Of a stretch of 56,701 nucleotides of DNA, positions 23,201 to 46,700 are shown piece by piece. The translations under genes were made by a program, and so were the position numbers. The notes beneath the pieces were generated by a model. The model did not search any database. It was not told where the DNA came from and worked only from the letters and a program-made list of their open reading frames with translations. The stretch comes from Flectonema sp. DT1601 (lineage: Eukaryota), in the NCBI GenBank assembly GCA_964019425.1, contig OZ025789.1:1488001-1544701 (forward strand), given 5' to 3'. The number at the start of each line of letters is the position of its first letter. Positions within the stretch are counted from its first letter, which is position 1.

Positions 23201-23282
23201 TGACAGGAGTGGGGTTTGAACCCACGCATCCGAAGATAGAGGAACTTGAGTCCTCCGCCTTAGACCGCTCGGCCATCCTGCC
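23201..23282 (-). tRNA. tRNA-Leu(CAA) copy 1
   Basis: GGCAGGATGGCCGAGCGGTCTAAGGCG-GAGGA-CTCAAGT-TCCTC, long variable arm, GGTTCAAACCC, TCCTGTCA. Confidence 0.95.
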
Positions 23283-23338
23283 ATGTCGGTATCAAAAATT
23301 TTTATTTATTAATAAATAAAATAAATAAACAAAAAAAG

Positions 23339-23575
23339 TTTTTTTTTTGGGAACCTTCCTAGCCGTACTTTCAACCCCTGCTAAGTGAGTCGCCTTTCTC
23401 TACCCTTTCTGTTGGTAGGTGAGTGAAGGTGTGTACTTGGAAGGCGAGCATCTCAAAGTCCGGGGCCCGACCGTTTGCCTTAGTGTCATTAGACTGGATT
23501 TTTTGCAGGGATCCTACCCTGAAAGTTGTCTATGGCCGGACTCGAACCTGGGTCGACACATTACCCAGGGAGCAA
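23339..23575 (-). mobile_element. Candidate tRNA-derived SINE or short retroelement with poly(A)
   Basis: Perfect B-box GGTTCGAGTCC on - (23538-23548); 3' end GGTTCCC-poly(A) at 23339-23348; no A-box seen. Confidence 0.45.
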
Positions 23576-23580
23576 AAATC

Positions 23581-23788
23581 TTATTTATTTATTTTGTCAC
23601 ATCTTTCTTGTCTCTCTTTCATTTTTCTTTTTTTTATATGAACGCTCTTCTTATTTTTTAACAAGACAAAGATACGCGTGCAACTGTCAGGAGTCCGTTA
23701 GAGGTCCTCCACGACAGATCGGCAGCTCCTGACACTGTCTGGGGTTCACTGGTTACCTACGAGCCATGAAGCTCTGCGGATGTCTCAG
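23581..23788 (-). mobile_element. 3'-end fragment of a LINE-B-like element with (TAAA)n tail
   Basis: Reverse complement matches 37406-37667 (CTGAG.ACATCCGCAGAGCTTCATGGCTCGTAGGTAACC...GATGTGAC.AAATAAATAA). Confidence 0.8.
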
Positions 23789-23796
23789 TTAAAAAG

Positions 23797-23880
23797 TTTT
23801 TTTTTTTCTTTGGTCACTTGTCTGTGCTTCCAGATTCTTTGTTTTTGTTCTTTTCACTTCTTTGTTTGTTTCTTTTATAC
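23797..23880 (-). mobile_element. 3'-end fragment of family C with poly(A)
   Basis: Matches 859-950 (GTCTGTGCT.CCA.A.TCTTTGTTTTTGTTCTTTTCACTTC). Confidence 0.75.
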
Positions 23881-23882
23881 TT

Positions 23883-23924
23883 GAAAATTTAGTTCAGGTG
23901 GCGGATGAACAAGAATCTCTAACA
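23883..23924 (+). repeat. Short LINE-A RNase H fragment
   Basis: GAAAATTTAGTTCAGGTGGCGGATGAACAAGAATCTCTAACA matches 29281-29325. Confidence 0.7.
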
Positions 23925-24037
23925 GCAAGTTCTTTTGCAGCAGGGGCACTTATCGGTGAAGATGCTAGGCAGGCAAGTTTATTCCGAAGATTCTTGTGAC
24001 GATTGTGTCAGTTTTTATGCAAGTCAAACATAAAAAC

Positions 24038-24119
24038 TGACAGGAGTGGGGTTTGAACCCACGCATCCGAAGATAGAGGAACTTGAGTCCTCCGCCTTAG
24101 ACCGCTCGGCCATCCTGCC
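24038..24119 (-). tRNA. tRNA-Leu(CAA) copy 2
   Basis: Identical to 23201-23282. Confidence 0.95.
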
Positions 24120-24214
24120 ATGTTTTTCTTTTTTTTTTTTATTTATTTATTTAGGGACCCCACAAAATGCCTCCACGCGGCGGTCTCGGACGGCTGCGAA
24201 AAAAAAAAATTAAA

Positions 24215-26080
24215 ATGGCTGGAAAGAAAGCAATGCGTCCGCAAGATAGAAGGGCTGCAGAAAGGAGAGAAAGAGAAAGGAAAGAGGCGAAGATGATGAG
24301 GGAACAAGCCAGAAATGAGATCCGGGAAGAAGAAGAGACCCAACAGCAAGAAGACGAGGACGTGGTGATGGGAGAATCACCAGAAGTATCAGAGGAAGAA
24401 ATGGAGATGGACTCTCCAGAAGTACCGGAAGGAATCGCAGTAGAGGTGACCGCAGTAGGACCTCCCGCAGCATTTCAAGCAAGCCCTCAAAACAAGGAGG
24501 CAACTCAAACAAAGACAAGCCCTCAAAACAAAGAGGCAATTCAAATAAGCCCTCAAAATATCGAGGCACATGGAAGTAAATTTTTAAAAGCAGATCAAAG
24601 CCCTCCGTCAAATGAGGCACCCCAATCAAGCCCTCAAATCAAAGAGGCACAAAGAAGATCGACGGTGATTATGAATGGACCACCACCGAAGCTAAACAAG
24701 GAGCATTTTAAATGCAAAATACTCCAGCCAACTGAGACCCTCAACAGCAAGACCAACGGCATTATACTTGCATTATCTCAACAAGCAAGAAGCCTGGACG
24801 AAGACTACTTCGAAAAGGCCAGTAAAACGAAGCAACTGACGATGGTGTTCACACGACCACCTCCAAAACGTGCCCTACAACACGCAACTGACTGCAGTCA
24901 GATACAGACACCTGTCCAATTCGATGGGCAATTAAAAATAAGAAGCTGGTGGTTCGTTGCTCTGTCTGGCACGATCCACCGGCCAACTCTAACGATCGCC
25001 AAGAAGATCAACGCACCGGTGACCCACGAATTAATTGCGTGGATAACAACTAAAGAGTTGACCAAGTCACAGGTCCAAAACCCGGCAGCTGTAACAGCAA
25101 TTGTCAAAGCTGTTGTGGCACAACACGGAAGAGTCGATCAACGCTCCTACAGATACGTTGGCAAAGACTTTGTAGAACTCACTGTTCTCCCAAACGATGT
25201 GGAAGCAGCTGTCGCACTTTTAAGAAACTCCGGAATAGGAAATGTTTATTTCCGGATTAAATCAGTGGCGGGACAGACACCCACTCAGTACACCACAGTG
25301 TGGCTGGACCGCAAGACAACAAACGAAGAGGCAGTTGGCATACTTAAAGCCCAACATGACCTCTGCCATGGACTCACCATCATACATGGCAAGATTGGAT
25401 TGAGGGTGGTTTATCAAAAGGATGTTGATAAAGTAAGAAAGGGTGCTGGTAAATATGCATCCACAGTGTTTGGCGAAGGGCTTCACCGTCTCAGTGGAGC
25501 ACCTTACAGCTGGGGTAACAGACTTCGGAATATCCTATTGGAGATAGGACTGAAGTCAAAGTTCATAAGGATGGATAGAGGTGACTTTATCATCGCACTG
25601 GACAAGAAACCAGAATCAAGGTTTGTACAGTGTGGAGATATTGTCATCCTCATTGAAAAGTTAGAAACAGAAGTGAAGGCGAAGGAAACAGCGAAACCCG
25701 TTGTAGTTAAGTACCGTGAGGCTAGAACATCGTACGCAGCCGCGGTCAAGAGGTCACTCCCGACAACGAAGAAACCAACGGCCGAAGTTCAGGTTGTAGA
25801 AAACAACGTGAACAGCCTGAGAGAGAAAACGAACGAGACAATCGAACGTCTTCAGAAAGAAGTGAAGGACATGCAAGTTCGACTTGATGAAGGCATGGCA
25901 CAGATAACCGGGATTGTAGAAACCCTGGTGCAAACTACGAAAAAGAACGAAGCAGCCAACAACAACATGGCGACAGCCATCACTTCGCTAATAGAAGCTG
26001 TCAAGAGGATTGAGAACAATCTTGGTATGAACAAGATTACTACAAGTGCGACCAACAGGAACAACACTGGCCAATCATGA
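24215..26080 (+). CDS. LINE-A ORF1 (621 aa; in frame with LINE-B ATG at 24167)
   Basis: SPQNKEA repeats; SGIGNVYF...VWLD...GKIGLRV domain shared with ORF1 of B; C-terminal coiled coil. Confidence 0.85.
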   Translation: MAGKKAMRPQDRRAAERRERERKEAKMMREQARNEIREEEETQQQEDEDVVMGESPEVSEEEMEMDSPEVPEGIAVEVTAVGPPAAFQASPQNKEATQTKTSPQNKEAIQISPQNIEAHGSKFLKADQSPPSNEAPQSSPQIKEAQRRSTVIMNGPPPKLNKEHFKCKILQPTETLNSKTNGIILALSQQARSLDEDYFEKASKTKQLTMVFTRPPPKRALQHATDCSQIQTPVQFDGQLKIRSWWFVALSGTIHRPTLTIAKKINAPVTHELIAWITTKELTKSQVQNPAAVTAIVKAVVAQHGRVDQRSYRYVGKDFVELTVLPNDVEAAVALLRNSGIGNVYFRIKSVAGQTPTQYTTVWLDRKTTNEEAVGILKAQHDLCHGLTIIHGKIGLRVVYQKDVDKVRKGAGKYASTVFGEGLHRLSGAPYSWGNRLRNILLEIGLKSKFIRMDRGDFIIALDKKPESRFVQCGDIVILIEKLETEVKAKETAKPVVVKYREARTSYAAAVKRSLPTTKKPTAEVQVVENNVNSLREKTNETIERLQKEVKDMQVRLDEGMAQITGIVETLVQTTKKNEAANNNMATAITSLIEAVKRIENNLGMNKITTSATNRNNTGQS

Positions 26081-29000
26081 TTGTGATTTGGTCAAATAAC
26101 ATTCGCTCAGTTCTGAAACCAGAAAATTACTTTCGATTGAACTGGGCACTGAAAGAAGAAAAGCCTGAAGTAGTACTACTGCAGGAAACGTGGTTATCAA
26201 AAGAAAAACACTTCGCTATTGAAGGATATTCAATCCACAGGAGAGACAGCACCATCAAGTCAGGTCATCGAGGACTCGTCACTCTGGTCAGAAATGATTT
26301 AAATAAGTTAATATTAAAACACCCCGACATCTCACATGACCAAACTGAGATATTAACAGTAGTACTTCAATCTAATCCGCCATTGACAATTCACAATGTT
26401 TACCACCCGCCTGAAATCAAGGCAACAACCTGGAAGTTCAAAACAGAGCCCGGCACATTGATTGCGGGTGACATTAATGGACACCATTCAACTTGGTCAA
26501 ATGGTAATACGAACACCACTGGTAACAGCTTCTACGATTGGTCACTAGAAGCAACAATTAAAATTCTAAATAAACCTCAACAACACACAAGACCACAAAG
26601 CTCAGCTTCTCCGGATGTAATTGCATTAGATATTTCAATAGATGCACAAATCGAACTCATGAAGGGATGGGGCAGCGATCACCTGCCACTCAAACTGACA
26701 ATCGAAGATATCAAAACAGATGAATATTCAAAAGAGAGTTCTGGGACATGGAAATGGAAGTGGCATTGTGCCGATTGGAATTATTATAAAATATTGTTGG
26801 AAAGGGCAGCGCCCAAATTAGAAAGAATTAAGAAGGTGCAGAAACTTGCTAATAGGATCAACAACGAGATTCTGAGAGCAGCGAGTAGGGCCATCCCAGG
26901 CTACAACAAAAAGTCAAGTAGTACCTTCGCTGTGAGGGATTCAGAATTGGAAGATTTAATGGCAGAGACTGACCCTGATAAGACAGACTCAGAAGCAATT
27001 GAAAGAGGTATCAACATGATCAAACAGAAGATCATTGAGTGCGACATGACTGGAATGGACTACCGATGGGCCTTTAGAAAAGTTAAACAACTGGAAGGTA
27101 GAATGATGGACCATTCAATTACTAAGATTGTCGACGGTGAGAAGGAATTAACCGACTCGCGGGAGATGGCAGATGTCTTCACCAAAACATACGCAGACCA
27201 ATTCAAATTCGAAGACGGTGAAACAACCTTACAAGGAATACCTGATGATAACTCGGTGGAATTTGGAATGCCTGAACTGGAACGACAAATTTCAAAAACA
27301 AAGGAGAAGAAGGCACCTGGACCTGACCACATCTGGAACTCGATGTTAAAACAACTTCCAAAAGCTTTCCTCGAGCAACTACTAAGACTATTCAACCTCT
27401 CATGGCAACGATCAGCAGTACCCAGGTGCTGGAAAAGTGGAATGGTAATACCCATACTGAAACCTGATAAAGACAAGAAACAAGTCCTATCGTACAGACC
27501 GATAGCACTAACCTCGACCGTCTCGAAACTCTTTGAAAGAATGGTCGTAGAACGGATGCACCACCTGTTGAAAGACAGAATGAATCCGAGGCAAGCAGCC
27601 TACAAACGAGGACGGGATTCCATTGAAAATCTCTGTATAGTTACAGACAAACTCAAAAGTGCCAAGGCAATGGGAGAAGAAGCGATATTAATCACCTTCG
27701 ACCTACAAAAAGCCTTTGATGCAGTTCAACCGGTAACTCTTCTAAATAAGATGTCCAAAATAGGACTACCAACGAAATATCTACGGTGGGTTCAAAACTA
27801 CTTGACTAGTAGGAAGATTTCAACAAGGGTGAATGGAGTGAAGGGAGCATTCCGGAACATTCGAGTAGGAGTACCACAAGGAAGCGTGCTGGGACCCCAG
27901 TTATTCTCTATCTTCATAAATGATTTGATAGATAAACTAGAGATGTACGAACCGACTGTCTTTGCAGATGATGTTGGAATAGTAATAACCGCGGGCACTG
28001 TCAGCTGTTTAGAAAACAAGGTTAACAACGCAGTCAAAATATTTGAAAGGTGGGCACTTGACTCACACATCAAAATCAATAAGAACCCTGGCAAGACGGA
28101 ATACATTCACGTGAGGCCAAGTGGAACACATGACAAGTCCCCAGTAGTAGTATACTCTGAAGAACACACATTTAAATATGTGGTGGCCACGGCAGAACAA
28201 ATGAGTAACCTTGTGAAGGATGATAACTCAACAACTGTAGCTTCAAAAGAAGAATTCGCCATCACTCACCTGTATGTCGTTCCAAAACATAAGATCAAAG
28301 TCAAGCTACCGAACAAACCGGCGGTACTGAAAACAATGAAGATGAGTGCCCGCTTCCCACAACTGAAGAAAGTCCACAACAAGGCAGAAATAGATAAGAT
28401 GCTGGAAAGAGTGGGACCCGGATTACACGGATTTGCCTATGCGGTTGGACGAAAAGTTCACAAGACGAATACCGTGCGGTATCTAGGCGTACATTATGAC
28501 GAGAAGTTAACCTTTAAGTCGCAAATTCAAAAGATGATGACAGCTGCTTCCAAGGGTCTAGGCTTGTTGGTTAGACTCACCAGGATAGGCTGCAGAAAGA
28601 GGACACTCATCAGTATACTGGTGACGGTGGTGTTAGCAAGGGTGCTTTATGGTGTTGAAAGCTTTGCTTGGATGCTACCAAAAGAGTGCTTCGAACAACT
28701 GGAATTACTGGTAAACAGGGCAGTGAGGCTGGTAACTGGATGTCTGCGGAGCACCAAACTACAGAGACTTTACAAAGAAGCCGATACGCCAAGACTAAAG
28801 GAACACATCCAGTATAAGATGTGTAGAACTTATGAACGTTTCAAATTGAGTCCGTTCCTACCGACTCGCAAGCTGACGAGAACAGGGAGTTCAGAATTAT
28901 TTCAAAAATCGAAATGGGGATGGAATGTCTGGATAGACTATGTCTCTGGTGTCCCTGGCCTTGACAACTACCGGAGCATTACCAACCTGGAAGTGAACCC

Positions 29001-29994
29001 AGAACACTACACTGTCCCTCCATGGAAAAGTACTAATGCGATGAAATTCACATATTCACGCAACAAGGAAGAGGCTGAACAGCGAGAAACTGAATTACCA
29101 GCTCACGAGATGAAAGTCTACACTGACGGGTCGATAAGACACAAACCCAACACGTACATGACAGACGCGGCTGCCGCTGTGGTCATGGTTAACGAAAGCA
29201 AGATGCGTCTACTTGGATATAAAATACCAGTAGCGGGTTCCTCTTATAGGACCGAGCAGATTGCAGTGAAACTGGCGTTGGAAAATTTAGTTCAGGTGGC
29301 GGAGGATGAACATGAATCTCTAACAACAACGACGCACCTGTTGACTGATTCGATGTCAGTCATGCAGGCATTGGAACAAGGGCCATATAAACAAAGGTCC
29401 CCAATGAACAAAAAGATCTGGAAGTTGGCAATGAAACTGGAGAAGAAGGGAATCCAAGTCAACATGCAGTATGTACCGGCACACAGAAACGTGCGGTACA
29501 ACGAAGTAGCGGACCAACTGGCGAAATTCGCTGCAGGCCTGAAGGAAGATCCACCTCACGAAGATGTTATTATTAAACAACTGCCCACTCAACTTGACAT
29601 GGGAACATTGATGACGTTTCACAAGCGGAGAAAACGGGAGAACTGGATCGGACCGGGAGAGGTAAGACACCCTCCGTACATCGAAGCTCTAACACGACCA
29701 GAGGAAGTACTGATGTCACGCTTTAGAGTGGGACATTGTAGATCTCTGATAATCAAAGGACTGAACGAGCTGTGCTTTTTCTGTAAACTTGGAAAGGCGA
29801 CAGCACATCATGTATTATTTATATGCGAACATTGGTGTATAGAAACCTTGAGAGAAAAATACATCAGTCACATGATGAATGACAAGGGAGAGGAAGCATG
29901 CCAACTGGAGGACTGCTACTTACCTGCGAATCAACAGCAGATGACTGGTTTTGTCACAACCTTAGACAGACTGGCACAACTATTAGGACGGTAG
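26077..29994 (+). CDS. LINE-A ORF2: AP endonuclease, reverse transcriptase, RNase H, Cys/His knuckle
   Basis: LLQET, GDINGH, SDHLP; YRPIAL, DLQKAFD, GVPQGSVLGP, FADD, YLGV; YTDGS, LTDS, YVPAH, NEVAD; CFFC...HVLFIC. Confidence 0.95.
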   Translation: MIVIWSNNIRSVLKPENYFRLNWALKEEKPEVVLLQETWLSKEKHFAIEGYSIHRRDSTIKSGHRGLVTLVRNDLNKLILKHPDISHDQTEILTVVLQSNPPLTIHNVYHPPEIKATTWKFKTEPGTLIAGDINGHHSTWSNGNTNTTGNSFYDWSLEATIKILNKPQQHTRPQSSASPDVIALDISIDAQIELMKGWGSDHLPLKLTIEDIKTDEYSKESSGTWKWKWHCADWNYYKILLERAAPKLERIKKVQKLANRINNEILRAASRAIPGYNKKSSSTFAVRDSELEDLMAETDPDKTDSEAIERGINMIKQKIIECDMTGMDYRWAFRKVKQLEGRMMDHSITKIVDGEKELTDSREMADVFTKTYADQFKFEDGETTLQGIPDDNSVEFGMPELERQISKTKEKKAPGPDHIWNSMLKQLPKAFLEQLLRLFNLSWQRSAVPRCWKSGMVIPILKPDKDKKQVLSYRPIALTSTVSKLFERMVVERMHHLLKDRMNPRQAAYKRGRDSIENLCIVTDKLKSAKAMGEEAILITFDLQKAFDAVQPVTLLNKMSKIGLPTKYLRWVQNYLTSRKISTRVNGVKGAFRNIRVGVPQGSVLGPQLFSIFINDLIDKLEMYEPTVFADDVGIVITAGTVSCLENKVNNAVKIFERWALDSHIKINKNPGKTEYIHVRPSGTHDKSPVVVYSEEHTFKYVVATAEQMSNLVKDDNSTTVASKEEFAITHLYVVPKHKIKVKLPNKPAVLKTMKMSARFPQLKKVHNKAEIDKMLERVGPGLHGFAYAVGRKVHKTNTVRYLGVHYDEKLTFKSQIQKMMTAASKGLGLLVRLTRIGCRKRTLISILVTVVLARVLYGVESFAWMLPKECFEQLELLVNRAVRLVTGCLRSTKLQRLYKEADTPRLKEHIQYKMCRTYERFKLSPFLPTRKLTRTGSSELFQKSKWGWNVWIDYVSGVPGLDNYRSITNLEVNPEHYTVPPWKSTNAMKFTYSRNKEEAEQRETELPAHEMKVYTDGSIRHKPNTYMTDAAAAVVMVNESKMRLLGYKIPVAGSSYRTEQIAVKLALENLVQVAEDEHESLTTTTHLLTDSMSVMQALEQGPYKQRSPMNKKIWKLAMKLEKKGIQVNMQYVPAHRNVRYNEVADQLAKFAAGLKEDPPHEDVIIKQLPTQLDMGTLMTFHKRRKRENWIGPGEVRHPPYIEALTRPEEVLMSRFRVGHCRSLIIKGLNELCFFCKLGKATAHHVLFICEHWCIETLREKYISHMMNDKGEEACQLEDCYLPANQQQMTGFVTTLDRLAQLLGR

Positions 29995-30246
29995 TATTAT
30001 TAAAACATCGACATTTCGAATATCAACATTGAAGGCATCATTGCAACACATCTGAAGTCGTCCAAGTGGGCAATTAATTATGTAGTATTAGTTTTAAGTT
30101 ATCAAAACAAAGAAAGGAGATACGAAGCCTACGGGATTCCCACCCCCAACCCCCAAAACAAAGAAAGTAAGAAAGAAAGAAAGAAAAAGAACAGCCGCGC
30201 CTAACAGCGCAAACAGCATCACAGACTCACGGGTCGTGGTGCACTC

Positions 30247-30277
<31 letters not shown>

Positions 30278-30281
30278 TGCG

Positions 30282-33200
30282 GCCGACAAAAAATTGTAGG
30301 GATGAAGCAAGAGGACGACCAGCTAACCGGACGCTCTCTAGCAAACAAAGGAACAAGCTTGCTCACACGATCAACGGAAATGGGCCTAAGATAGAAGAAA
30401 GGGAAAGGCTGGACCGAGACAACACCCGGGTAGACCGGGGAGAAACGAGGAAGAAACCGGCGGAGAGGAGACTCAAGAAGCAGCAAGAGGACCAGGAGGA
30501 AGAGAGGAAGGAGCTGCTCAGCAAACATGAGCTCCTTGAAGCACAACAAAAGAAGCTGGACGAGCAGCACAGGCAGCAACAATTAGATCTCTTTCAGGAA
30601 AAGCTCCAACTGGAACAAGACTTGGAGGATCACAAGAATCAACAAGTGGAGAAACAACAACTACTGGAACAACAACACCAGCAGCAGCAGCTTGAGCTTC
30701 ACCAAACGAAGCATCAGATGCAACAGGAACTGGAGAACCAACAACAACAACAGCATGAAAAGCAACAACAGCAGCAACAGCAACTTGATCATCAAGTCCA
30801 ACAGCAGCAGGAAATTCAACAGCAGCAGCAACAGCAACTTGATCATCAAGTCCAACAACAGCATCTAAACCATCAACAGAGCCAAGAACTATTTAACCAA
30901 CAACAGCAAGAATTGCTTAAGTTCAAGGCAGACCTCCAACAAAAACAGGAGATAATCCTGAACCAACAGCAGCAACTCGAACAGCAGCACAGCAAGGAGA
31001 AGGATATCGAGAGAGAGTCTCTCCGCAGGAGAAGATGTCAACTCGAGGAAGACCACCGTCAACAGCAACTTGAACAGTCCAGGATTCAACAGGAACTGCA
31101 ACTGCAACAGACAAGCCTGGAGGAAAAACAGCATCTGCTACAACAGCAATTTAATGTGGAATTGGAAAAGGGTAAACTGGAGTTACTGGACTTACAGCAA
31201 CAACTGGAGAAGAAAAACCAGGAAGGTCTGAAGGAGCAGGAGGTGGCTCTACAGCTTAAACAACGGCTGCTTATCGAACAGCACAACAAGGAGAAGGAGG
31301 ACGGGAAGCAGGAGTTATTGGTCCTGCAACAGCAACTAAGCGAGCAACGTCTGCATGATCAGCAGCAACAGCAACAGAGAAGCGAGGAGTTAAAGAAGCA
31401 AGAAGAAGACCTCGAACTTCAACGACTCCAACTGCAACGCCAGCAGGAGGATGAAATGGAGAAGGGCAGATATGAGCTCCAGAGTCTCAGGGACATGCTG
31501 GGTATGGAGTTTGAGGAACAGAAGACGTCACTAAAAATCCAAGGGGATAATCTTCGCCATCAGCAACAACAGCTCCAGCAACAACAGCAAATCTTCCAAG
31601 AAAAAGAAGAACGACTTGATCAGTACTACGTACACCAGCCTTATGCCACCGACACCAACTCCCACTACCAACTTCCTCAAGACCCCCGGTTTGATGAACT
31701 TCAGAGGGAGCTACGTCAGGAACGGGCTGAGAAAGGAGAACTTAGGGAGCTGCTGAAATCTCTTCAACACCAACTGAAGGAAATGACGCAAGAACTTAAC
31801 TTGCAGAGAATGGAAGCTCAGGAGCAAAGGGAGGCTGCCAAGAAAGAGTCACTAGGAATGCAAGCCCGCTACCTGCAGGAATTACAAGCGGAGAGAGCTC
31901 AGGTGAAGGAGCTCAATCACTTGAGGGCGGATGAAGATGATGTTGCGATGGCAGTCGTACAACGGGAAGTCGCATCGGATGAGAATCTCCATCTGAATAT
32001 GATGCGTGAACTGGAAGGGGACAGGAAAAAGAGCTCGAAGGTAATTACTGAAGCTCAACTGTCTGAGAGGGAGGGTCTTAGGACTCAGATGACGAAGGAG
32101 GAGGGTAAGCTTGCACTCGTTCAAGGCAAGTTCGAAAATGATGCCCTGAAGGAGGAGGCTTTGGTGACGAGACTGGAGCTGGTGCCGGAGTACTGGCCGG
32201 ATAACATGGTGTTATCAGAGGCTAGCTACAAGGCTGGTGGGAGAGGAGTGTACCTCACAACCACGAAGGAAGTAAGAAGGAGAATGGCTGGGGCTGAGCT
32301 GGGTGCCTGGGAATCGCTGACCTTGGTCACGTTGTTTCCCCCTACGGATAAAGCGAAGGAAGTGCAGGTCGTGTTGAAGGTGAAGACTGACGATGGGGTG
32401 AAGAGATCTCTGAGGAGGCTGTGGCTATCAGCCCTGGGTAGGGAGGTCCTCCCAAAAGGAACGGATATCAGTGCGACGGTAAGAACGAGGGAACTGGTTG
32501 CTCGGTTGGACAAGAGATGGGCCGAGGAGAAGAGATGGTTGGAGGTGAAGCGTTCTCCGATGAAACTATCCCAGGAACTGAAGAAGTTACCGGGGTACGT
32601 TGATACCTACAACGCTAGAGTAGGTGATCAACAAATAACGGTCATGCTGCGGGTAAAGGAAACGGAGGTGAAGAACTTCCTCAGGGAGTCAGGGAAGGAG
32701 GGCACCTTTACCAAAGAAAGAGATCACCTGGATGAGAAGGCAGTGAAGGCATCTGTTCTGTGGTTGCCGAAGGATGACACCCTCAGTTTGGCGAGAGACA
32801 AGGCGGAAGAAGTTGAGGGAGGTCTAGGGTTAGTGCTTAACGAGTATGGCCTTGGTATAAGGGTTAACAGTTGGCATGAGAAGGCTGCGAGGGAGATGTT
32901 GCACCTGCCGGCGAAACTTCCGGAGACCAGGATCTCGGGAATCCCAATAGGAACTTCGACGGATGAAGCGGTGAAATACCTCATCTCGAGGGAAGGATGG
33001 GAGGTGAGGAAGATGAAGGATGGTGTTCGGAACGGGATGCGGTGGATGGTCGTGCGTGGTCCCGAGAGGGATGGCGAGACTGTCACCATCGACGGAGTCC
33101 TTTGTCTACTCGAGCCGATGAAGAAGAAGGTGGTTGCTCCTGTGAAGTCGGTCAAAGTAGCCCCGAAGGTGAAGGAACAGAAGCCGGAAAAGCGAAGGGA

Positions 33201-33471
33201 TCCTTCGGAGGGCACGGACAAGTGGTATACGCGTGTGGAATTCATTGCGTACCACGGTAAGAAGAAGGGAATCCGTCTGTGGGGGAAGGCATCGCAGAAC
33301 GCACAGGAAGCTTCGGTGAAGCTGGAATCGGTATCGACCCCTGAACAGCAGAAACAGAACAAGAAGGAAAAGAATACACCTCCAAAGAATGATGAACGGA
33401 AGAAGTGTTCAGTCGAGGATAGACTGGAACGTCTTGAGCGTCTGCTCTTGTCGCTTGTAGGGAGCAAGTGA
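30282..33471 (+). CDS. LINE-B ORF1, 3' portion (poly-Q coiled coil plus conserved domain); true start at 24167, reconstructed length 1073 aa
   Basis: Frame is open from the TSD (cgg ccg aca aaa aat tgt agg gat...) to TGA at 33469-33471. Confidence 0.85.
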
Positions 33472-36400
33472 CTTGACGGGCGGGATTGGGCGGAAACGCG
33501 AAGGCGTCTTCTGCTACTGGCGGGTGACGTAGAGAGGAATCCGGGACCGAGACGCCGTCATGATGGACCCACTTCGGAGCTGCGAGTTATCAGCTGGAAC
33601 TGCAGAACGATCAACGGAAGAGAGGAGTTCATAGGAAATATCCTGGGAAAGTACAGCCCTGATGTATTATGCCTGCAGGAAACCTCAGTTCGGAAGCCTC
33701 TACATCACTGGAATTACATCACGTACAGGAGAGATAGACCGGGTAGAGGTGGCGGTATAATCACCATGGTGAAGAGAGGCCTTCAGCATGCTTGCTATGA
33801 AGTCTGTATCCCTTCGGTTAGAGGAATTGTTGAGACATTGGGTGTCAGGATTAATGATGAGATAAATGTTCTCAACGTGTATTCGCCGCCAAGTTCTAAG
33901 ATAGATTTTGATCTCTTCCCTTTGAAGCGTGATGAAAGGTTTATATTTGCTGGTGACTTCAATGCCCATCATAAACTCTGGTCGAAGAAGACGGATACGA
34001 AGGGCTGCCAGCTTCTGGAGTGGTGCAGATCTAATAACCTTCTAATTGCAAACGATCCGGGATTTGTGACGTTGCCGAGACACGGGACTTCGCCGGATGC
34101 AATCCTACACCACGAGGAGTTACTACTACTACACTTCGGGCTAATAGGTGATGGCACTGAACATGGATCTGATCACTTACCTCTTGCTGCTGTCTTTGAT
34201 ACGTTCTCACCTCTGGAAACAGTTAACAACCAGGCATCGAAAAAATCAGTCTGGGACTTTAATACAGCTGATTGGTACTCGTTCCGTCATGATTTGGATT
34301 ACCGACTTAGCAAGGTGAACAGTCCTCCGAAGGTGGGTATCAGAGCGGCAACATTTAACCGTATCCTGCTTCATGTGGCGAAGAAGAACATCCGCAGAAG
34401 GCTCAGGATCCAGGGTAAGAGGAGGAGAATGTGGAATTCCTCAACCCCTGAGACCAAACAAGCGAAGGGAAAATTCGTTGCTGAGAAACTTGCACAAGGT
34501 GAAGGTTTTGCATTCGCCTTTAAGAAGATTAAGGACTTGGATGCCGATGGGGGACAGGACGTCCAAATCCCTGAATTCAGTGAGGACCAACTCCCCAGTA
34601 AATTTCTCGATCAGTTCGTTAAGACCTCTGTCAGGAAACAACTGAAATCTTCGAAGCTGAAGCCAAGTGATTACGTAGGTGCTTGTGGACCTCTGGTGAT
34701 GTCTGAGCTTGAGCGCGCCATCAAGAAGGTTAAAACTGGTAAGGCTCCTGGTCCTGATGGAATCCACGGGGCGATGCTGAAGAACCTTTCTGCAACCGGT
34801 AGACGTTTTCTCTTAGCGGTGTTCAACGACTCCTGGCTCTCAGCTAGAGTTCCGAAGGTCTGGAAAGAGGGTATGATCAAACCGGTATACAAACCGGGTA
34901 AACCCAAAGAAAAGCTATCCAGCTACAGACCGATCACGTTGACATCTGTAGTCGGTAAAATGCTTGAACGGATAATTTACGACAGGCTAATGTATTGGTT
35001 GACGTCAAATAATGCCTTGTCCTCCATTCAGGCAGGCTTCAGAAGGGGTAGGAATACTTGCGAGCAAATCTCACTGCTGGTCAATGCGCTTCATGGTGCG
35101 AGAAAAGGTGGCAAGAGTTCGATACTGCTCTCTTTCGACTTCACTGAGGCATTTGATAGGATAAATCATGTTAAACTGATTGCTAAAATGGTGACGATGG
35201 GGATTCCTTCACCATTCATCGGATGGGTCGCTAACTTTCTGACGCGAAGGAAGGCAAAGGTTAGTGTCAATGGCAATCTGAGCGCATACAGAACTGTGAC
35301 GAAAGGTGTTCCGCAAGGGTCGATTGTTGGGCCTCTCCTTTATCTGATATTTGTCGACGACCTGGCTAAGAAACTTGAGAAGACCGGATGTGTTTCAGCA
35401 CTCTACGCAGACGACACAGCTTGTGTGGTTTCGAATAAGGATTTTAAAGTAACTTACCGGATGGCGCAATTAGTCCTTGGGTTAGTAGATCGTTGGTGCA
35501 AAGATAATGACATGGCACTGTCGGTTTCGAAGACCTGCGGGATGCCGGTGGACTGTCCTAGGAATATGTATTGGAGACTGGGATTCCCCAGAACGTCAGG
35601 AGAGAACTTCTTTCGGATCAGTAGGGAGGAACTGGCTGGGATGATTCGGTCAAATGAAGAAGGTAGGCCATTACTTGGAAATGGGGCGATGATCCTCAAG
35701 CTGGGTGATACGGAGGTTACGAAGGCAAGTGAACTTCTTGAACTGATGCCAGTGGGTCCGGATCCGACCTGGGTGAAGTTGCTGACTGCCGTACTCATGC
35801 CGATGGTGGATAGTGTTAAGTACTTGGGTGTCCATATTGACGATGACCTTACATATGGTACACAAGTGGATAAACTACTGGATGAGACGAGGAAGGGACT
35901 TGTTCTGCTTCGAAAGTTGGAGCTATTCAACTTTGATTTCAAAACGCTGAACATGATCAAGAACTTATACATCCTCTCAAGGATTCTGTATGGGCTTGAG
36001 AGCTATGGACCTTTCCTGACAGATGAACAGCTTAAACCTATTGACCTGAATCTGAGGAAGATAGCTAGAAAGATCACTGGCTGCGGCTTCAACACAAGGT
36101 CCCTTCCGTTACTGTGGGAGGCGAACATACTACCGATGAGACTGCAGATTGAGAAGCAAGCCAGGATTGCTTTATTTAGGTATCGGTCACTGGATTGGGT
36201 TCCTTCTACGAAGGGAATCGCTAGTGGAACTTGGAGTTCAACTTTACCGGCCGAGGACCGTAATATGGAGATCCAGGGGATTGTCATGCCTGACAGCATC
36301 GAGCCATGGATAGATGTTCCGAACCTGGAGATATCTTGCGGATATGGACATTCGAAGACCGGTGTTGCTGAAGTGGACAAGGCTAAGTTCGAGGAGTACT

Positions 36401-37335
36401 GCAGCGAACTTAGGCCATGTACCTCGTCCATTTTTGTTGACGGATCCCACGACCCTGTCAACTACACGGCAGGCGCAGCGGCAGTGCAGATCACGCCGTG
36501 TGAACGGACCATGGCATCGAGACTAGTTGCAACGGAAAGTAGTTATAAAGCTGAACAGGTAACTCTGAAGCTGTTAATAAGTGAATTTGGAAAAGCAACC
36601 TCTGTCTTGGGTCCCAGATCTGGAATCACGAGAGTCTTCAGTGATTCTAAATCCAATCTGGATGAGCTGCGTGGTGGAATTGCGGCTCAGAGGAAGCTGA
36701 ACTCTCTCTCGATACTAGAAGGGATAAGAAAATTAGACTCATTCGTACACCTTCAATTCATCCCAGCTCACGTGGGAATTGAACCGCATGACAAGGCAGA
36801 TGAACTGGCGAAAAAGATCTCAAAAGATGTTAAGAGCAAGCCGGTGTCAACGACTATGGACTTCTTCGCACATAAGTCAAGGATAGCGAGGGAAGCTAAC
36901 AGAAAGCTGTTTGGTAAGATTATGGAGGGTTCAACAAGGGCGAAACCACCGATCAAACGGGTGATGCTTAGGCAGTATCTTGATGCTACCGGAGGCCTGA
37001 GAGCGGCTCGATACCCCAAGGACATGCTGAGAGAATCAGAGATAAGGATAGCCAGGTTCAGAACGGGTTCTCACCCCCTGCTCAGGGTAAATGAACTACC
37101 GATAAAGTGCCCCTTCTGCAAAAGAACAGACTCTTCTGCCCGACATCTAATATTTGATTGCGAGGATGGTGACGTGGTCCGCATTAGAGAAGGAACAATT
37201 AGATCAAACATTCAGGAAGCGAGAATCTCCGAGACCAAACTAAATCTTTCAATAATGTTTGCGACGAGAAATCTTCACGCCCTAGCCGGCTACTTATGGC
37301 ATTTGGAACAACGAACAGGCTTATCAAACTGTTAA
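33472..37335 (+). CDS. LINE-B ORF2 preceded by a 2A peptide; no AUG before the endonuclease N-terminus
   Basis: LDGRDWAETRRRLLLLAGDVERNPGP-RRRHDGPTSELRVISWNCRT...DVLCLQET...; RT YRPITL, GVPQG, YADD; RNase H FVDGS, FSDSKS, FIPAHVG; CPFC...HLIFDC. Confidence 0.92.
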   Translation, partial: LDGRDWAETRRRLLLLAGDVERNPGPRRRHDGPTSELRVISWNCRTINGREEFIGNILGKYSPDVLCLQETSVRKPLHHWNYITYRRDRPGRGGGIITMVKRGLQHACYEVCIPSVRGIVETLGVRINDEINVLNVYSPPSSKIDFDLFPLKRDERFIFAGDFNAHHKLWSKKTDTKGCQLLEWCRSNNLLIANDPGFVTLPRHGTSPDAILHHEELLLLHFGLIGDGTEHGSDHLPLAAVFDTFSPLETVNNQASKKSVWDFNTADWYSFRHDLDYRLSKVNSPPKVGIRAATFNRILLHVAKKNIRRRLRIQGKRRRMWNSSTPETKQAKGKFVAEKLAQGEGFAFAFKKIKDLDADGGQDVQIPEFSEDQLPSKFLDQFVKTSVRKQLKSSKLKPSDYVGACGPLVMSELERAIKKVKTGKAPGPDGIHGAMLKNLSATGRRFLLAVFNDSWLSARVPKVWKEGMIKPVYKPGKPKEKLSSYRPITLTSVVGKMLERIIYDRLMYWLTSNNALSSIQAGFRRGRNTCEQISLLVNALHGARKGGKSSILLSFDFTEAFDRINHVKLIAKMVTMGIPSPFIGWVANFLTRRKAKVSVNGNLSAYRTVTKGVPQGSIVGPLLYLIFVDDLAKKLEKTGCVSALYADDTACVVSNKDFKVTYRMAQLVLGLVDRWCKDNDMALSVSKTCGMPVDCPRNMYWRLGFPRTSGENFFRISREELAGMIRSNEEGRPLLGNGAMILKLGDTEVTKASELLELMPVGPDPTWVKLLTAVLMPMVDSVKYLGVHIDDDLTYGTQVDKLLDETRKGLVLLRKLELFNFDFKTLNMIKNLYILSRILYGLESYGPFLTDEQLKPIDLNLRKIARKITGCGFNTRSLPLLWEANILPMRLQIEKQARIALFRYRSLDWVPSTKGIASGTWSSTLPAEDRNMEIQGIVMPDSIEPWIDVPNLEISCGYGHSKTGVAEVDKAKFEEYCSELRPCTSSIFVDGSHDPVNYTAGAAAVQITPCERTMASRLVATESSYKAEQVTLKLLISEFGKATSVLGPRSGITRVFSDSKSNLDELRGGIAAQRKLNSLSILEGIRKLDSFVHLQFIPAHVGIEPHDKADELAKKISKDVKSKPVSTTMDFFAHKSRIAREANRKLFGKIMEGSTRAKPPIKRVMLRQYLDATGGLRAARYPKDMLRESEIRIARFRTGSHPLLRVNELPIKCPFCKRTDSSARHLIFDCEDGDVVRIREGTIRSNIQEARISETKLNLSIMFATRNLHALAGYLWHLEQRTGLSNC
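33499..33549 (+). other. 2A-like StopGo peptide (RRRLLLLAGDVERNPG|P)
   Basis: Exact D(V/I)ExNPGP consensus preceded by a hydrophobic helix. Confidence 0.92.
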
Positions 37336-37756
37336 CTGATTGGTAGTTGCTAATTCATTAGTATCATTCTTCCTTATCACACTCCTTAATCAACTCCTAA
37401 TTTCTCTGAGGACATCCGCAGAGCTTCATGGCTCGTAGGTAACCCAGTGGTCTTTGGCCACCGTCCCTGTACTGATCCTTCGCTTTATATTAACTGTGTC
37501 TTGAGATTCCTATCCGGGGAAGTCCTCCAACGGACTCAGGACAGTTGCGCTTGTTTTTACTTGTTTACTTTATCAAAAAATAAGAAGGGCAAGAATGCTC
37601 AGAATGAAGAAAAATAAAGTGGAAAGACAGGGGGGATGTGACTAAATAAATAAATAAATAAATAAAATTTTTTTTTTATTTATTTACTTTTTTTCTCTTC
37701 TTTTTTCTTCTTTTTTTTTCTTCTTCCCTTTTCCCTTATTTTCCCCTCTTTTTTTT

Positions 37757-40670: not shown

Positions 40671-40873
40671 TCTGTTCCTTCGTTCAGAGGATGAATCTCT
40701 GTCTCAGTTTCCTTTTCTTCGAAAACCATGAATGGCACATTCTTGGAAGGTGGTACAGAATCAAAAGGTACAGCTATATCGCAAGAAGACTCAAATGCTG
40801 ATGAGAGAAATTGGCTAAGCTGACTCAACAGGTAAAGAAAGAAAGCTTTGATTCTGTTACATCACCCTAAAAC

Positions 40874-40955
40874 TGACAGGAGTGGGGTTTGAACCCACGC
40901 ATCCGAAGATAGAGGAACTTGAGTCCTCCGCCTTAGACCGCTCGGCCATCCTGCC
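40874..40955 (-). tRNA. tRNA-Leu(CAA) copy 3
   Basis: Identical to the other two copies. Confidence 0.95.
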
Positions 40956-40968
40956 ATGTTTTCTGTAC

Positions 40969-41025
40969 TTTTTTTTTTTTTTTTTTTTGGTTACACTCGT
41001 CTGTGCTTCCAGACTCTTTGTTTTT
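40969..41025 (-). mobile_element. 3'-end fragment of family C with poly(A)
   Basis: Poly-T then GGTTACACTCGTCTGTGCT, as at 859-899; 13 nt upstream of tRNA-Leu. Confidence 0.8.
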
Positions 41026-43726
41026 AACCGACTCGCGGGAGATGGCAGATGTCTTCACCAAAACATACGCAGACCAATTCAAATTCGAAGACGGTGAACC
41101 AACCTTACAAGGAATACCTGATGATAACTCGGTGGAATTTGGAATGCCTGAACTGGAACGACAAATTTCAAAAACAAAGGAGAAGAAGGCACCTGGACCT
41201 GACCACATCTGGAACTCGATGTTAAAACAACTTCCAAAAGCTTTCCTCGAGCAACTACTAAGACTATTCAACCTCTCATGGCAACGATCAGCAGTACCCA
41301 GGTGCTGGAAAAGTGGAATGGTAATACCCATACTGAAACCTGATAAAGACAAGAAACAAGTCTTATCGTACAGACCGATAGCACTAACCTCGACCGTCTC
41401 GAAACTCTTTGAAAGAATGGTCGTAGAACGGATGCACCACCTGTTGAAAGACAGAATGAATCCGAGGCAAGCAGCCTACAAACGAGGGCGGGATTCCATT
41501 GAAAATCTCTGTATAGTTACAGACAAACTCAAAAGTGCCAAGGCAATGGGAGAAGAAGCGATATTAATCACCTTCGACCTACAAAAAGCCTTCGATGCAG
41601 TTCAACCGGCAACTCTTCTAAATAAGATGTCCAAAATAGGACTACCAACGAAATATCTACGGTGGGTTCAAAACTACTTGACTAGTAGGAAGATTTCAAC
41701 AAGGGTGAATGGAGTGAAGGGAGCATTCCGGAACATTCGAGTAGGAGTGCCACAAGGAAGCGTGCTGGGACCCCAGTTATTCTCTATCTTCATAAATGAT
41801 TTGATAGATAAACTAGAGATGTACGAACCGACTGTCTTTGCAGATGATGTTGGAATAGTAATAACCGCAGGCACTGTCAGCTGTTTAGAAAACAAGGTTA
41901 ACAACGCAGTCAAAATATTTGAAAGGTGGGCACTTGACTCACACATCAAAATCAATAAGAACCCTGGCAAGACGGAATACATTCACGTGAGGCCAAGTGG
42001 AACTCATGACAAGTCCCCAGTAGTAGTATACTCTGAAGAACACACATTTAAATATGTGGTGGCCACGGCAGAACAAATGAGTAACCTTGTGAAGGATGAT
42101 AACTCAACAACTGTAGTTTCAAAAGAAGAATTCGCCATCACTCACCTGTATGTCGTTCCAAAACATAAGATCAAAGTCAAGCTACCGAACAAACCGGCGG
42201 TACTGAAAACAATGAAGATGAGTGCCCGCTTCCCACAACTGAAGAAAGTCCACAACAAGGCAGAAATAGATAAGATGCTGGAAAGAGTGGGACCCGGATT
42301 ACACGGATTTGCCTATGCGGTTGGACGAAAAGTTCACAAGACGAATACCGTGCGGTATCTAGGCGTACATTATGACGAGAAGTTAACCTTTAAGTCGCAA
42401 ATTCAAAAGATGATGACAGCTGCTTCCAAGGGTCTAGGCTTGTTGGTTAGACTCACCAGGATAGGCTGCAGAAAGAGGACACTCATCAGTATACTGGTGA
42501 CGGTGGTGTTAGCAAGGGTGCTTTATGGTGTTGAAAGCTTTGCTTGGATGCTACCAAAAGAGTGCTTCGAACAACTGGAATTACTGGTAAATAGGGCAGT
42601 GAGGCTGGTAACTGGATGTCTGCGGAGCACCAAACTACAGAGACTTTACAAAGAAGCCGACACGCCAAGACTGAAGGAACACATCCAGTATAAGATGTGT
42701 AGAACTTATGAACGTTTCAAATTGAGTCCGTTCCTACCGACTCGCAAGCTGACGAGAACAGGGAGTTCAGAATTATTTCAAAAATCGAAATGGGGATGGA
42801 ATGTCTGGATAGACTATGTCTCTGGTGTCCCTGGCCTTGACAACTACCGGAGCATTACCAACCTGGAAGTGAACCCAGAACACTACACTGTCCCTCCATG
42901 GAAAAGTACTAATGCGATGAAATTCACATATTCACGCAACAAGGAAGAGGCTGAACAGCGAGAAACTGAATTACCAGCTCACGAGATGAAAGTCTACACT
43001 GACGGGTCGATAAGACACAAACCCAACACTTACATGACAGACTCGGCTGCCGCTGTGGTCATGGTTAACGGAAGCAAGATGCGTCTACTTGGTATATAAA
43101 ATACCAGTAGCGGGTTCCTCTTATAGGACCGAGCAGATTGCAGTAAAAATGGCGTTGGAAAATTTAGTTCAGGTGGCGGAGGATGAACATGAATCTCTAA
43201 CAACAACGACGCACCTGTTGACTGATTCGATGTCAGTCATGCAGGCATTGGAACAAGGGCCATATAAACAAAGGTCCCCAATGAACAAAAAGATCTGGAA
43301 GTTGGCAATGAAATTGGAGAAGAAGGGAATCCAAGTCAACATGCAGTAATGTACCGGCACACAGAAACGTGCGGTACAACGAAGTAGCGGACCAACTGGC
43401 GAAATTCGCTGCGGGCCTGAAGGAAGATCCACCTCACGAAGATGTTATTATTAAACAACTGCCCACTCAACTTGACATGGGAACATTGATGACGTTTCAC
43501 AAGCGGAGAAAACGGGAGAACTGGATCGGACCAGGAGAGGTAAGACACCCTCCGTACATCGAAGCTCTAACACGACCAGAGGAAGTACTGATGTCACGCT
43601 TTAGAGTGGGACATTGCAGATCTCTGATAATCAAAGGACTGAACGAGCTGTGCTTTTTCTGTAAACTTGGAAAGGCGACAGCACATCATGTATTATTTAT
43701 ATGCGAACATTGGTGTATAGAAACCT
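41024..43726 (+). mobile_element. Recent 5'- and 3'-truncated LINE-A copy (RT-RNase H)
   Basis: Near-identical to 27148-29848; single-base insertions near 43093 and 43348; ends abruptly at the repeat array. Confidence 0.93.
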
Positions 43727-46700
43727 GCAAACCCGCGAACCCGCAAACCCGCAAACCCGCAAACCCGCAAACCCGCAAACCCGCAAACCCGCAAACCCGC
43801 AAACCCGCAAACCCGCAAACCCGCAAACCCGCAAACCCGCAAACCCGCAAACCCGCAAACCCGCAAACCCGCAAACCCGCAAACCCGCAAACCCGCAAAC
43901 CCGCAAACCCGCAAACCCGCAAACCCGCAAACCCGCAAACCCGCAAACCCGCAAACCCGCAAACCCGCAAACCCGCAAACCCGCAAACCCGCAAACCCGC
44001 AAACCCGCAAACCCGCAAACCCGCAAACCCGCAAACCCGCAAACCCGCAAACCCGCAAACCCGCAAACCCGCAAACCCGCAAACCCGCAAACCCGCAAAC
44101 CCGCAAACCCGCAAACCCGCAAACCCGCAAACCCGCAAACCCGCAAACCCGCAAACCCGCAAACCCGCAAACCCGCAAACCCGCAAACCCGCAAACCCGC
44201 AAACCCGCAAACCCGCAAACCCGCAAACCCGCAAACCCGCAAACCCGCAAACCCGCAAACCCGCAAACCCGCAAACCCGCAAACCCGCAAACCCGCAAAC
44301 CCGCAAACCCGCAAACCCGCAAACCCGCAAACCCGCAAACCCGCAAACCCGCAAACCCGCAAACCCGCAAACCCGCAAACCCGCAAACCCGCAAACCCGC
44401 AAACCCGCAAACCCGCAAACCCGCAAACCCGCAAACCCGCAAACCCGCAAACCCGCAAACCCGCAAACCCGCAAACCCGCAAACCCGCAAACCCGCAAAC
44501 CCGCAAACCCGCAAACCCGCAAACCCGCAAACCCGCAAACCCGCAAACCCGCAAACCCGCAAACCCGCAAACCCGCAAACCCGCAAACCCGCAAACCCGC
44601 AAACCCGCAAACCCGCAAACCCGCAAACCCGCAAACCCGCAAACCCGCAAACCCGCAAACCCGCAAACCCGCAAACCCGCAAACCCGCAAACCCGCAAAC
44701 CCGCAAACCCGCAAACCCGCAAACCCGCAAACCCGCAAACCCGCAAACCCGCAAACCCGCAAACCCGCAAACCCGCAAACCCGCAAACCCGCAAACCCGC
44801 AAACCCGCAAACCCGCAAACCCGCAAACCCGCAAACCCGCAAACCCGCAAACCCGCAAACCCGCAAACCCGCAAACCCGCAAACCCGCAAACCCGCAAAC
44901 CCGCAAACCCGCAAACCCGCAAACCCGCAAACCCGCAAACCCGCAAACCCGCAAACCCGCAAACCCGCAAACCCGCAAACCCGCAAACCCGCAAACCCGC
45001 AAACCCGCAAACCCGCAAACCCGCAAACCCGCAAACCCGCAAACCCGCAAACCCGCAAACCCGCAAACCCGCAAACCCGCAAACCCGCAAACCCGCAAAC
45101 CCGCAAACCCGCAAACCCGCAAACCCGCAAACCCGCAAACCCGCAAACCCGCAAACCCGCAAACCCGCAAACCCGCAAACCCGCAAACCCGCAAACCCGC
45201 AAACCCGCAAACCCGCAAACCCGCAAACCCGCAAACCCGCAAACCCGCAAACCCGCAAACCCGCAAACCCGCAAACCCGCAAACCCGCAAACCCGCAAAC
45301 CCGCAAACCCGCAAACCCGCAAACCCGCAAACCCGCAAACCCGCAAACCCGCAAACCCGCAAACCCGCAAACCCGCAAACCCGCAAACCCGCAAACCCGC
45401 AAACCCGCAAACCCGCAAACCCGCAAACCCGCAAACCCGCAAACCCGCAAACCCGCAAACCCGCAAACCCGCAAACCCGCAAACCCGCAAACCCGCAAAC
45501 CCGCAAACCCGCAAACCCGCAAACCCGCAAACCCGCAAACCCGCAAACCCGCAAACCCGCAAACCCGCAAACCCGCAAACCCGCAAACCCGCAAACCCGC
45601 AAACCCGCAAACCCGCAAACCCGCAAACCCGCAAACCCGCAAACCCGCAAACCCGCAAACCCGCAAACCCGCAAACCCGCAAACCCGCAAACCCGCAAAC
45701 CCGCAAACCCGCAAACCCGCAAACCCGCAAACCCGCAAACCCGCAAACCCGCAAACCCGCAAACCCGCAAACCCGCAAACCCGCAAACCCGCAAACCCGC
45801 AAACCCGCAAACCCGCAAACCCGCAAACCCGCAAACCCGCAAACCCGCAAACCCGCAAACCCGCAAACCCGCAAACCCGCAAACCCGCAAACCCGCAAAC
45901 CCGCAAACCCGCAAACCCGCAAACCCGCAAACCCGCAAACCCGCAAACCCGCAAACCCGCAAACCCGCAAACCCGCAAACCCGCAAACCCGCAAACCCGC
46001 AAACCCGCAAACCCGCAAACCCGCAAACCCGCAAACCCGCAAACCCGCAAACCCGCAAACCCGCAAACCCGCAAACCCGCAAACCCGCAAACCCGCAAAC
46101 CCGCAAACCCGCAAACCCGCAAACCCGCAAACCCGCAAACCCGCAAACCCGCAAACCCGCAAACCCGCAAACCCGCAAACCCGCAAACCCGCAAACCCGC
46201 AAACCCGCAAACCCGCAAACCCGCAAACCCGCAAACCCGCAAACCCGCAAACCCGCAAACCCGCAAACCCGCAAACCCGCAAACCCGCAAACCCGCAAAC
46301 CCGCAAACCCGCAAACCCGCAAACCCGCAAACCCGCAAACCCGCAAACCCGCAAACCCGCAAACCCGCAAACCCGCAAACCCGCAAACCCGCAAACCCGC
46401 AAACCCGCAAACCCGCAAACCCGCAAACCCGCAAACCCGCAAACCCGCAAACCCGCAAACCCGCAAACCCGCAAACCCGCAAACCCGCAAACCCGCAAAC
46501 CCGCAAACCCGCAAACCCGCAAACCCGCAAACCCGCAAACCCGCAAACCCGCAAACCCGCAAACCCGCAAACCCGCAAACCCGCAAACCCGCAAACCCGC
46601 AAACCCGCAAACCCGCAAACCCGCAAACCCGCAAACCCGCAAACCCGCAAACCCGCAAACCCGCAAACCCGCAAACCCGCAAACCCGCAAACCCGCAAAC

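Follow-up and report, generated by a model that had tools for sequence, protein, structure and literature searches.

The window analyzed here, a stretch of 56,701 nucleotides from Flectonema sp. DT1601 (contig OZ025789.1, positions 1,488,001 to 1,544,701, forward strand), carries on its plus strand a long interspersed nuclear element (LINE) of the APE type, whose two open reading frames (ORFs) lie in the same frame and are separated by a single UGA, with a predicted 2A (StopGo) peptide shortly beyond it. The 5' end of the element has been displaced (24155..24198, + strand) and comprises 12 nt, the ORF1 AUG (24167) and the residues MPPRGGLGRLR, this start being matched to the intact family copies P0203, P0210 and P0214, which begin MPPRGGLGRLRPTKN. 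The interruption is a second LINE (24199..30274, + strand), which has no 2A, carries an AUGA stop-start overlap at 26077-26080 and ends in a poly(A) tail; the insertion (within 24155-30281) lies about ten codons into ORF1 and is bracketed by a 7-bp duplication, GGCTGCG, at 24192 and 30275. The ORF1 and ORF2 clusters of the inserted LINE have 27 and 91 members, respectively. Two other ORF1 calls of the family, P0206 and P0215, open with an A-run or with 3' UTR (untranslated region)-like residues at the same insertion point, and the three cases suggest from their sequences that the family's 5' end is a repeated target.

The remainder of ORF1 (30275..33471, + strand) ends VGSK-UGA. In intact copies, the protein has 1073 residues with a Q-rich, coiled-coil-like N-terminal half; it is conserved across subfamilies and has no match in Pfam. 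A first fold of ORF1 was poor (pLDDT, the predicted local distance difference test, 46.7), and a model of the C-terminal region reached 78.9. The best Foldseek rows for the latter were tandem RNA recognition motif (RRM) proteins (E 0.002-0.014), with no Foldseek match at E ≤ 0.001 and none in the Atlas, so that the modeled region resembles tandem RRMs weakly. The ORF2 product (33547..37335, + strand; 1262 residues) contains an APE endonuclease, a reverse transcriptase (RT) with YADD, an RNase H and a C-terminal CCHC-like knuckle. Pfam matches to Exo_endo_phos and RVT_1 (PF03372, PF14529, PF00078) give the order APE then RT of an APE-type non-long terminal repeat (LTR) retrotransposon; the RNase H was found by an alignment profile against solved structures and not by Pfam on the window copy, and the best solved relative of the ORF2 alignment is L1 ORF2p.

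Next comes a 3' UTR (37336..37667, + strand) that has a (TAAA)n tail at its end. It has stretches in common with the 3' ends of different LINEs (37406-37657 compared with 23581-23788 on the minus strand and with 3400-3434) that have no Rfam match and are possibly an RT recognition site. No exact duplication was found flanking the whole element, whose flanks are both T-rich. At the other end, only 12 nt separate the apparent 5' end from the ORF1 AUG, and Rfam returned only tRNAs in 1-43800, the 77-nt promoter/ribozyme hallmark of Ingi itself not having been compared.

The nearest named relatives of ORF2 are Flectonema neradi proteins at 41-48% identity, and ORF1-like matches came from Flectonema neradi and Diplonema papillatum, so that the host is likely a diplonemid, probably a marine one. 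In a quick tree of 22 proteins, which held no L1Tc or ingi reference, 12 ORF2s, from ENA and from Flectonema, formed one clade (SH-aLRT, the approximate likelihood ratio test, 100). Scans for the DNA of other copies found none in genomes and none in viruses beyond one 29% fragment; the metagenome scan gave two loci at 27% identity, of which L001 is an unrelated two-ORF LINE.

The ORF1–ORF2 junction

A preliminary description of this stretch had proposed that ORF1 is followed in frame, past a UGA and without an AUG, by a 2A peptide and ORF2, and each of these elements could be read again in the sequence. ORF1 ends AAG TGA CTT GAC, the TGA being at 33469-33471 (+ strand). Beyond it the ORF1 frame stays open for 1287 codons, passing through LDGRDWAETRRRLLLLAGDVERNPGP into the endonuclease N terminus (VISWNCRT, DVLCLQET); the predicted 2A skip site is 25 codons past the UGA and the endonuclease begins about a dozen codons further. 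From the proline at 33547 to the ORF2 stop there are 1262 residues, as described. The first in-frame AUG, at 33766, lies downstream of the endonuclease motifs WNC and LQET, both of which would be lost from a protein begun there; we therefore rejected it as the start of ORF2.

Three segments make up the junction proper, which is about 80 nt long. The UGA with its 3' context CUU (33469..33474, + strand) is a candidate readthrough site, at a stop position kept in 22 of the 24 ORF1 proteins of subfamilies A to C. Eight in-frame linker codons, LDGRDWAE (33472..33495, + strand), contain neither an AUG nor a near-cognate start codon. The putative 2A itself, LLLLAG-DVERNPG/P (33496..33549, + strand), was identified by its core motif, with the skip predicted ahead of the proline at 33547, and the in-frame near-cognate codons ACG at 33496, AGG at 33502 and CUG at 33511 and 33517 fall within it. 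The core D(V/I)ExNPGP is matched by DVERNPGP, and no other D[VI]ExNPGP occurs in any of the window's six frames. The motif lies directly before the APE domain, which is where LINE 2As sit (PMC3708506), and the upstream hexapeptide LLLLAG resembles the LLLLSG-like upstream class (PMC12846837).

No AUG overlaps or adjoins the ORF1 stop to open ORF2, nor is there any in-frame AUG before 33766, so stop-start coupling of the SART1 type is absent. Directly past the 2A, a codon scan found an out-of-frame AUG-AUG opening a 24-codon ORF (33560..33634, + strand), which would be expected to trap scanning ribosomes ahead of the AUG at 33766.

Family-wide position of the stop

If the UGA were a nonsense mutation private to this copy, as the preliminary description had allowed, intact relatives should carry a sense codon there. 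We retrieved 48 ORF1 proteins, with the window's own among the 12 of subfamily A. ORF1 ends at the same residue in all 12 of these, in five of the seven of subfamily B (the other two are broken by frameshifts) and in five of five of subfamily C. In the other families, ORF1 ends in FMERN in family D (6/10), in EKSQ in family E (7/11) and in MQRN in Flectonema (3/3), the remaining D and E proteins being broken earlier or frameshifted. None of the 48 runs on into the 2A. A private mutation was rejected on this shared position, and the layout of stop and 2A is a real feature of the family.

Fused proteins were also sought. In what was a weak search, none of 6973 candidates was a fused ORF1-ORF2 protein of 1606-4585 residues, and when representatives clustered at 50% identity were queried with the read-through sequence, the best 150 of 358 matches included no close one that spans both sides. 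A distant gene model from Diplonema papillatum, P0276, does combine an ORF1-like part with an endonuclease part in a single protein that lacks a 2A; this may be an artefact of modeling.

Among the 15 listed members of the 74-member ORF2 cluster, six begin at the residue of AUG 33766, nine downstream of it and none upstream. A 72%-identical sister family has the 2A (P0265); of the 15 ORF2 calls listed for it, eight start within the endonuclease and again none upstream. In a 70%-identical family, a Met start stands at the endonuclease itself.

The junction in a frameshifted relative

Among 415 proteins scanned for shifted-frame readings of the junction, P0261 was the only one found, together with one unrelated chance match. 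It is a subfamily-B copy (94% identical to B and 76% to A) with a frameshift just ahead of the stop, and the protein called from it therefore crosses the junction in the +1 frame, giving ASDLMGVIGLKR where the same frame of the window gives ASDLTGGIGRKR, the match running on through the 2A. A Ser-Asp pair in this reading forces the stop to be UGA followed by C or U; the alternative CGA is excluded because subfamily-B ORF1 proteins end at that position. A single in-frame UGA followed by a pyrimidine is thus kept in both readable subfamilies, A from the window and B by inference from P0261.

P0261 also bears on whether the codons past the stop are translated. This comparison draws on one degenerate copy (5 private substitutions in 270 residues), assumes parsimony, leaves mutation bias uncorrected and cannot see changes that are silent in the +1 frame; within those terms, all six visible differences from the window over 33472-33613 are third-position synonymous changes in the ORF2 frame, against a random expectation of 104 synonymous among 318 visible single changes (p about 0.001). 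In the linker alone (33472-33495), the figure is three of three against an expected 15 of 51 (p about 0.025), all within the first seven codons. Because the differences there are all synonymous in the ORF2 frame, the codons right past the UGA are probably translated in that frame, from the stop or just after it. Initiation at the ACG or CUG codons within the 2A as the sole route to ORF2 is unlikely, because linker and 2A both show only synonymous differences. One of the synonymous changes creates an out-of-frame AUG 4 nt past the stop, which may be private to P0261; both Met codons of the out-of-frame AUG-AUG at 33560 are present in P0261 as well.

Predicted RNA structure

The preliminary description had further pointed to two possible pairings downstream of the UGA, with the remark that a 3' structure often helps a leaky stop. 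The first, between 33474-33479 and 33555-33560, does form in the minimum free energy fold of 33472-33565 but is not significant. With ends chosen by hand, the z score was −1.83, a value matched by 9 of 200 shuffles; widening the ends gave −0.40 and +0.26. Of 96 windows of equal length placed along the element, 5 folded at least as well, and in a 450 nt context the pair probabilities were 0.20-0.59. The second, GGCGTCT with AGACGCC, is mutually exclusive with the first and had a probability of 0.002. Twenty windows starting 0-11 nt past the stop gave z scores from −1.82 to +0.95. Excluding the covered bases led to the prediction of a local hairpin at 33489-33515, for which P0261 shows no compensatory change. 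Given these ordinary z scores and a stem that begins 2 nt past the stop, compared with spacers of 8 nt or more in known viral stimulators (PMC13517186), a 3' RNA structure is not supported, nor is one needed for readthrough.

Around the stop itself, a 9-bp hairpin is predicted at 33450-33472 (−12.1 kcal/mol) with the UGA in its 3' arm, and the window 33420-33513 had a z score of −2.7 on 25 shuffles.

Proposed readthrough and the alternatives

We consider readthrough of the UGA followed by StopGo to be the best reading of the junction, at a probability of roughly 0.55. From the preliminary description, this keeps the stop position, the frame and the 2A and drops the 3' stem. Most ribosomes would end at the ORF1 UGA and a small share would read through, translating the 25 in-frame codons up to the 2A, where a skipped bond at NPG/P would separate a 1262-residue, proline-starting enzyme from the 1073-residue ORF1 protein. 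Readthrough would in this way keep ORF2 low relative to ORF1, and the 2A would undo the fusion otherwise made. The broader proposal, that a diplonemid LINE clade uses two recoding events 25 codons apart, with programmed UGA readthrough setting the ORF1:ORF2 ratio and the 2A freeing ORF2, has in our view about an even chance of being right.

Readthrough is favored because the junction has a single stop, no spacer, a kept frame, a UGA followed by a pyrimidine, no start-like codon and competing out-of-frame AUGs. Those AUGs (4 nt past the stop in P0261, and at 33560) should divert ribosomes that reinitiate and not those that elongate. The single stop without a spacer can be set beside rat L1, a presumed case of reinitiation in which the ORFs are separated by 60 nt that hold two in-frame stops (PMC2241872). 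Readthrough is favored, too, by the clear job it would give the 2A, namely the release of ORF2.

A number of observations weigh against this reading. The sequence alone does not separate readthrough from an AUG-independent reinitiation at the stop. A strong readthrough signal is lacking at the junction: CUU follows the UGA, whereas viral type II sites have UGA-CUA or UGA-CGG (PMC13517186), a stem starting where the predicted one does would be inside the ribosome's mRNA channel, and the only alternative hairpin loses G-U pairs through the changes in P0261 at 33483 and 33492. In reporters, the UGA of Tca2 and the 3' structure that accompanies it did not direct readthrough (PMC2194720). The window copy is interrupted near its 5' end, and the junction DNA is known from this copy and, by back-inference, from one degenerate relative. 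Distant families have a Met 21-34 residues ahead of the skip site (P0004, P0164, P0005 and P0180); P0004 and P0164, both from Flectonema, carry two different N termini, the P0005 cluster has the Met in 6 of 15 listed members, and the P0180 cluster has it in 3 of 15 listed, with 6 of 15 starting inside the endonuclease. The Flectonema MDG resembles the window's LDG directly past the stop. Finally, a frameshifted copy of the 41%-identical family E, P0268, implies a CAA-UGA followed by a pyrimidine and also an AUGA overlap, and its tail has no 2A in any inferable frame. The UGA may therefore be inherited from AUGA stop-start overlaps, as found in the inserted LINE and, by inference, in family E, and because of these overlaps its conservation alone is no proof that it is leaky.

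The strongest competitor, which we regard as a serious alternative though less probable than readthrough, is an AUG-independent termination-reinitiation at the UGA, with a few ribosomes restarting within one or two codons and the 2A trimming ORF2 to the same proline. Human L1 provides a precedent, as its ORF2 translation is AUG-independent and needs a completed upstream ORF (PMC4091050, PMC11485995), and the relatives with a Met ahead of the 2A and the AUGA of the inserted LINE allow that such coupling is ancestral. The synonymous-only change in the linker is predicted equally by reinitiation, which is also favored by the missing readthrough signal and by the predicted hairpin at 33450-33472 that buries the UGA. 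What argues for readthrough instead is that the codon past the stop, CUU, would need two substitutions to become AUG, that the out-of-frame AUG in P0261 would compete for restarting ribosomes, and that reinitiation needs neither the same frame nor a single stop, both of which are kept in the two readable subfamilies.

It appears improbable that ORF2 has an mRNA of its own, produced by spliced-leader trans-splicing onto the AG at 33459-33460 and translated from a near-cognate start at ACG 33496 or CUG 33511 or 33517. Diplonemid mRNAs do carry a spliced leader (PMC10161547), near-cognate codons are present in frame, and this AG has 15 pyrimidines in the 20 upstream positions, a value that only one more of the 360 AGs in ORF1 reaches and none exceeds. 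The pyrimidine run, however, codes for LLLSLV, a helix that is conserved, and elsewhere in the element five AGs score at least as high; a start at 33496 or later would leave 33472-33495 untranslated, yet all three changes there are synonymous, and it would shorten the 2A or make it pointless. The tract and its AG, at 33439-33460, lie 9 bases ahead of the stop and are a candidate trans-splice acceptor.

That the stop is removed or recoded in some other way is very unlikely: an in-frame cis-intron at 33468-33503 (36 nt) has a GT...AG pair in the sequence, but its donor differs from the GTATG donors of the host and reverse transcription of its spliced RNA would yield a fused element, of which the 48 ORF1 proteins include none; UGA as a general Trp codon is opposed by 72 of 72 Trp codons being TGG in seven long ORFs of the window (these were defined with TGA as a stop, so the count speaks only to TGA not being a routine sense codon); and for selenocysteine there is no match in Rfam to a selenocysteine insertion sequence (SECIS).

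Other features of the window

At 772-960, 23200-24155 and 40873-41030, the ends of LINEs are found no more than about 40 bases upstream of genes for tRNA-Ala(CGC) and tRNA-Leu(CAA), which suggests, from position, that the LINE clade targets tRNA genes. Between LINE tails upstream of tRNA-Leu, at 23500-23570 on the minus strand, is a B-box-like GGTTCGAGTCC called by neither ARAGORN nor Rfam, possibly a short interspersed nuclear element (SINE) or a small RNA gene.

Among the ORF1 calls P0205, P0224, P0229, P0262, P0263 and P0411, those of families D and F continue in frame into host sequence that resembles leucine-rich repeats, and two of family E continue into host sequence, which in P0263 looks like a cysteine protease; these labels were assigned by eye, except for PF13306 on P0205. 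The joins hint at family-specific target genes.

From 43721 to 56701, directly past a 3'-truncated LINE copy, the window contains about 1620 copies of AAACCCGC with the C-rich strand on the plus strand. This orientation is the reverse of a usual chromosome end. The array may not be the end of the contig, and the window proteins are recorded on a contig of 103,393 bases.

Discussion

The junction is built of two known parts in an arrangement that we did not find described. The preliminary description had remarked on the apparent novelty of a UGA with a 2A in a LINE, and the literature searched, which excluded Repbase and the supplementary lists of elements of PMC3708506 and PMC13405545, indeed yielded no LINE in which an AUG-less 2A follows a stop. 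Reviews regard the way in which LINEs translate ORF2 as an open question (PMC3894237, PMC3708506). A published idea is that the 2A replaces ORF1 as a brake on ORF2. The present family has both an ORF1 and a 2A, with no AUG before the 2A, so that here the 2A looks like a release step and not a substitute.

L1Tc, ingi and other APE-type LINEs with a 2A (PMC3708506, PMC3894237) share with this family a 2A in frame just before the APE domain, and INGI also shares the APE-RT-RNase H layout (PMC12278014) and, by inference for the window element, a euglenozoan host. The Ingi clade lacks ORF1, most 2A LINEs have one ORF, and a 2A at the start of a LINE ORF2 mostly goes with the loss of ORF1; the named exceptions with both are CR1-26_BF, CR1-53_BF and CR1-1_LG (PMC3708506, PMC3894237). 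The family described here combines the APE-RT-RNase H order and N-terminal 2A of Ingi with a 1073-residue ORF1 that shares the frame of ORF2, and its 2A is preceded by one stop and by no AUG. In Cordylochernes scorpioides (PMC13405545), a 2A likewise stands between the ORF1 and ORF2 domains; those ORF1p-2A-ORF2p are reported as single proteins, and so with no stop, whereas in this family a stop precedes the 2A.

Human and rat L1 and SART1 are bicistronic LINEs whose ORF2 depends on ribosomes coming from ORF1 and has a low output. In L1, 60-63 nt separate the two ORFs and an AUG is present, along with two in-frame stops in rat, and SART1 has an overlapping AUG (UAAUG); the present family has no spacer and no AUG but does have a 2A. 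Should readthrough be correct, the sister families with an AUG ahead of the 2A would record a switch between reinitiation and readthrough, and close families with and without that Met offer a natural comparison.

Outside LINEs, cardiovirus StopGo followed by a −1 frameshift (PMC5009743) similarly places two recoding events a few codons apart and cuts enzyme output, although in the virus the order is a 2A and then a frameshift, while here the UGA comes first. Tca2 (UGA; PMC2194720) and murine leukemia virus (MuLV; UAG; PMC5009743, PMC13517186) have, like this family, structural and enzyme ORFs in one frame with one stop between them. Both are LTR elements without a 2A at the junction; in MuLV, a pseudoknot is proven, and the Tca2 flank directed no readthrough in reporters. 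If our reading is true, the Flectonema element would be a LINE with the gag-pol readthrough of a retrovirus, using ribosome skipping in place of a protease.

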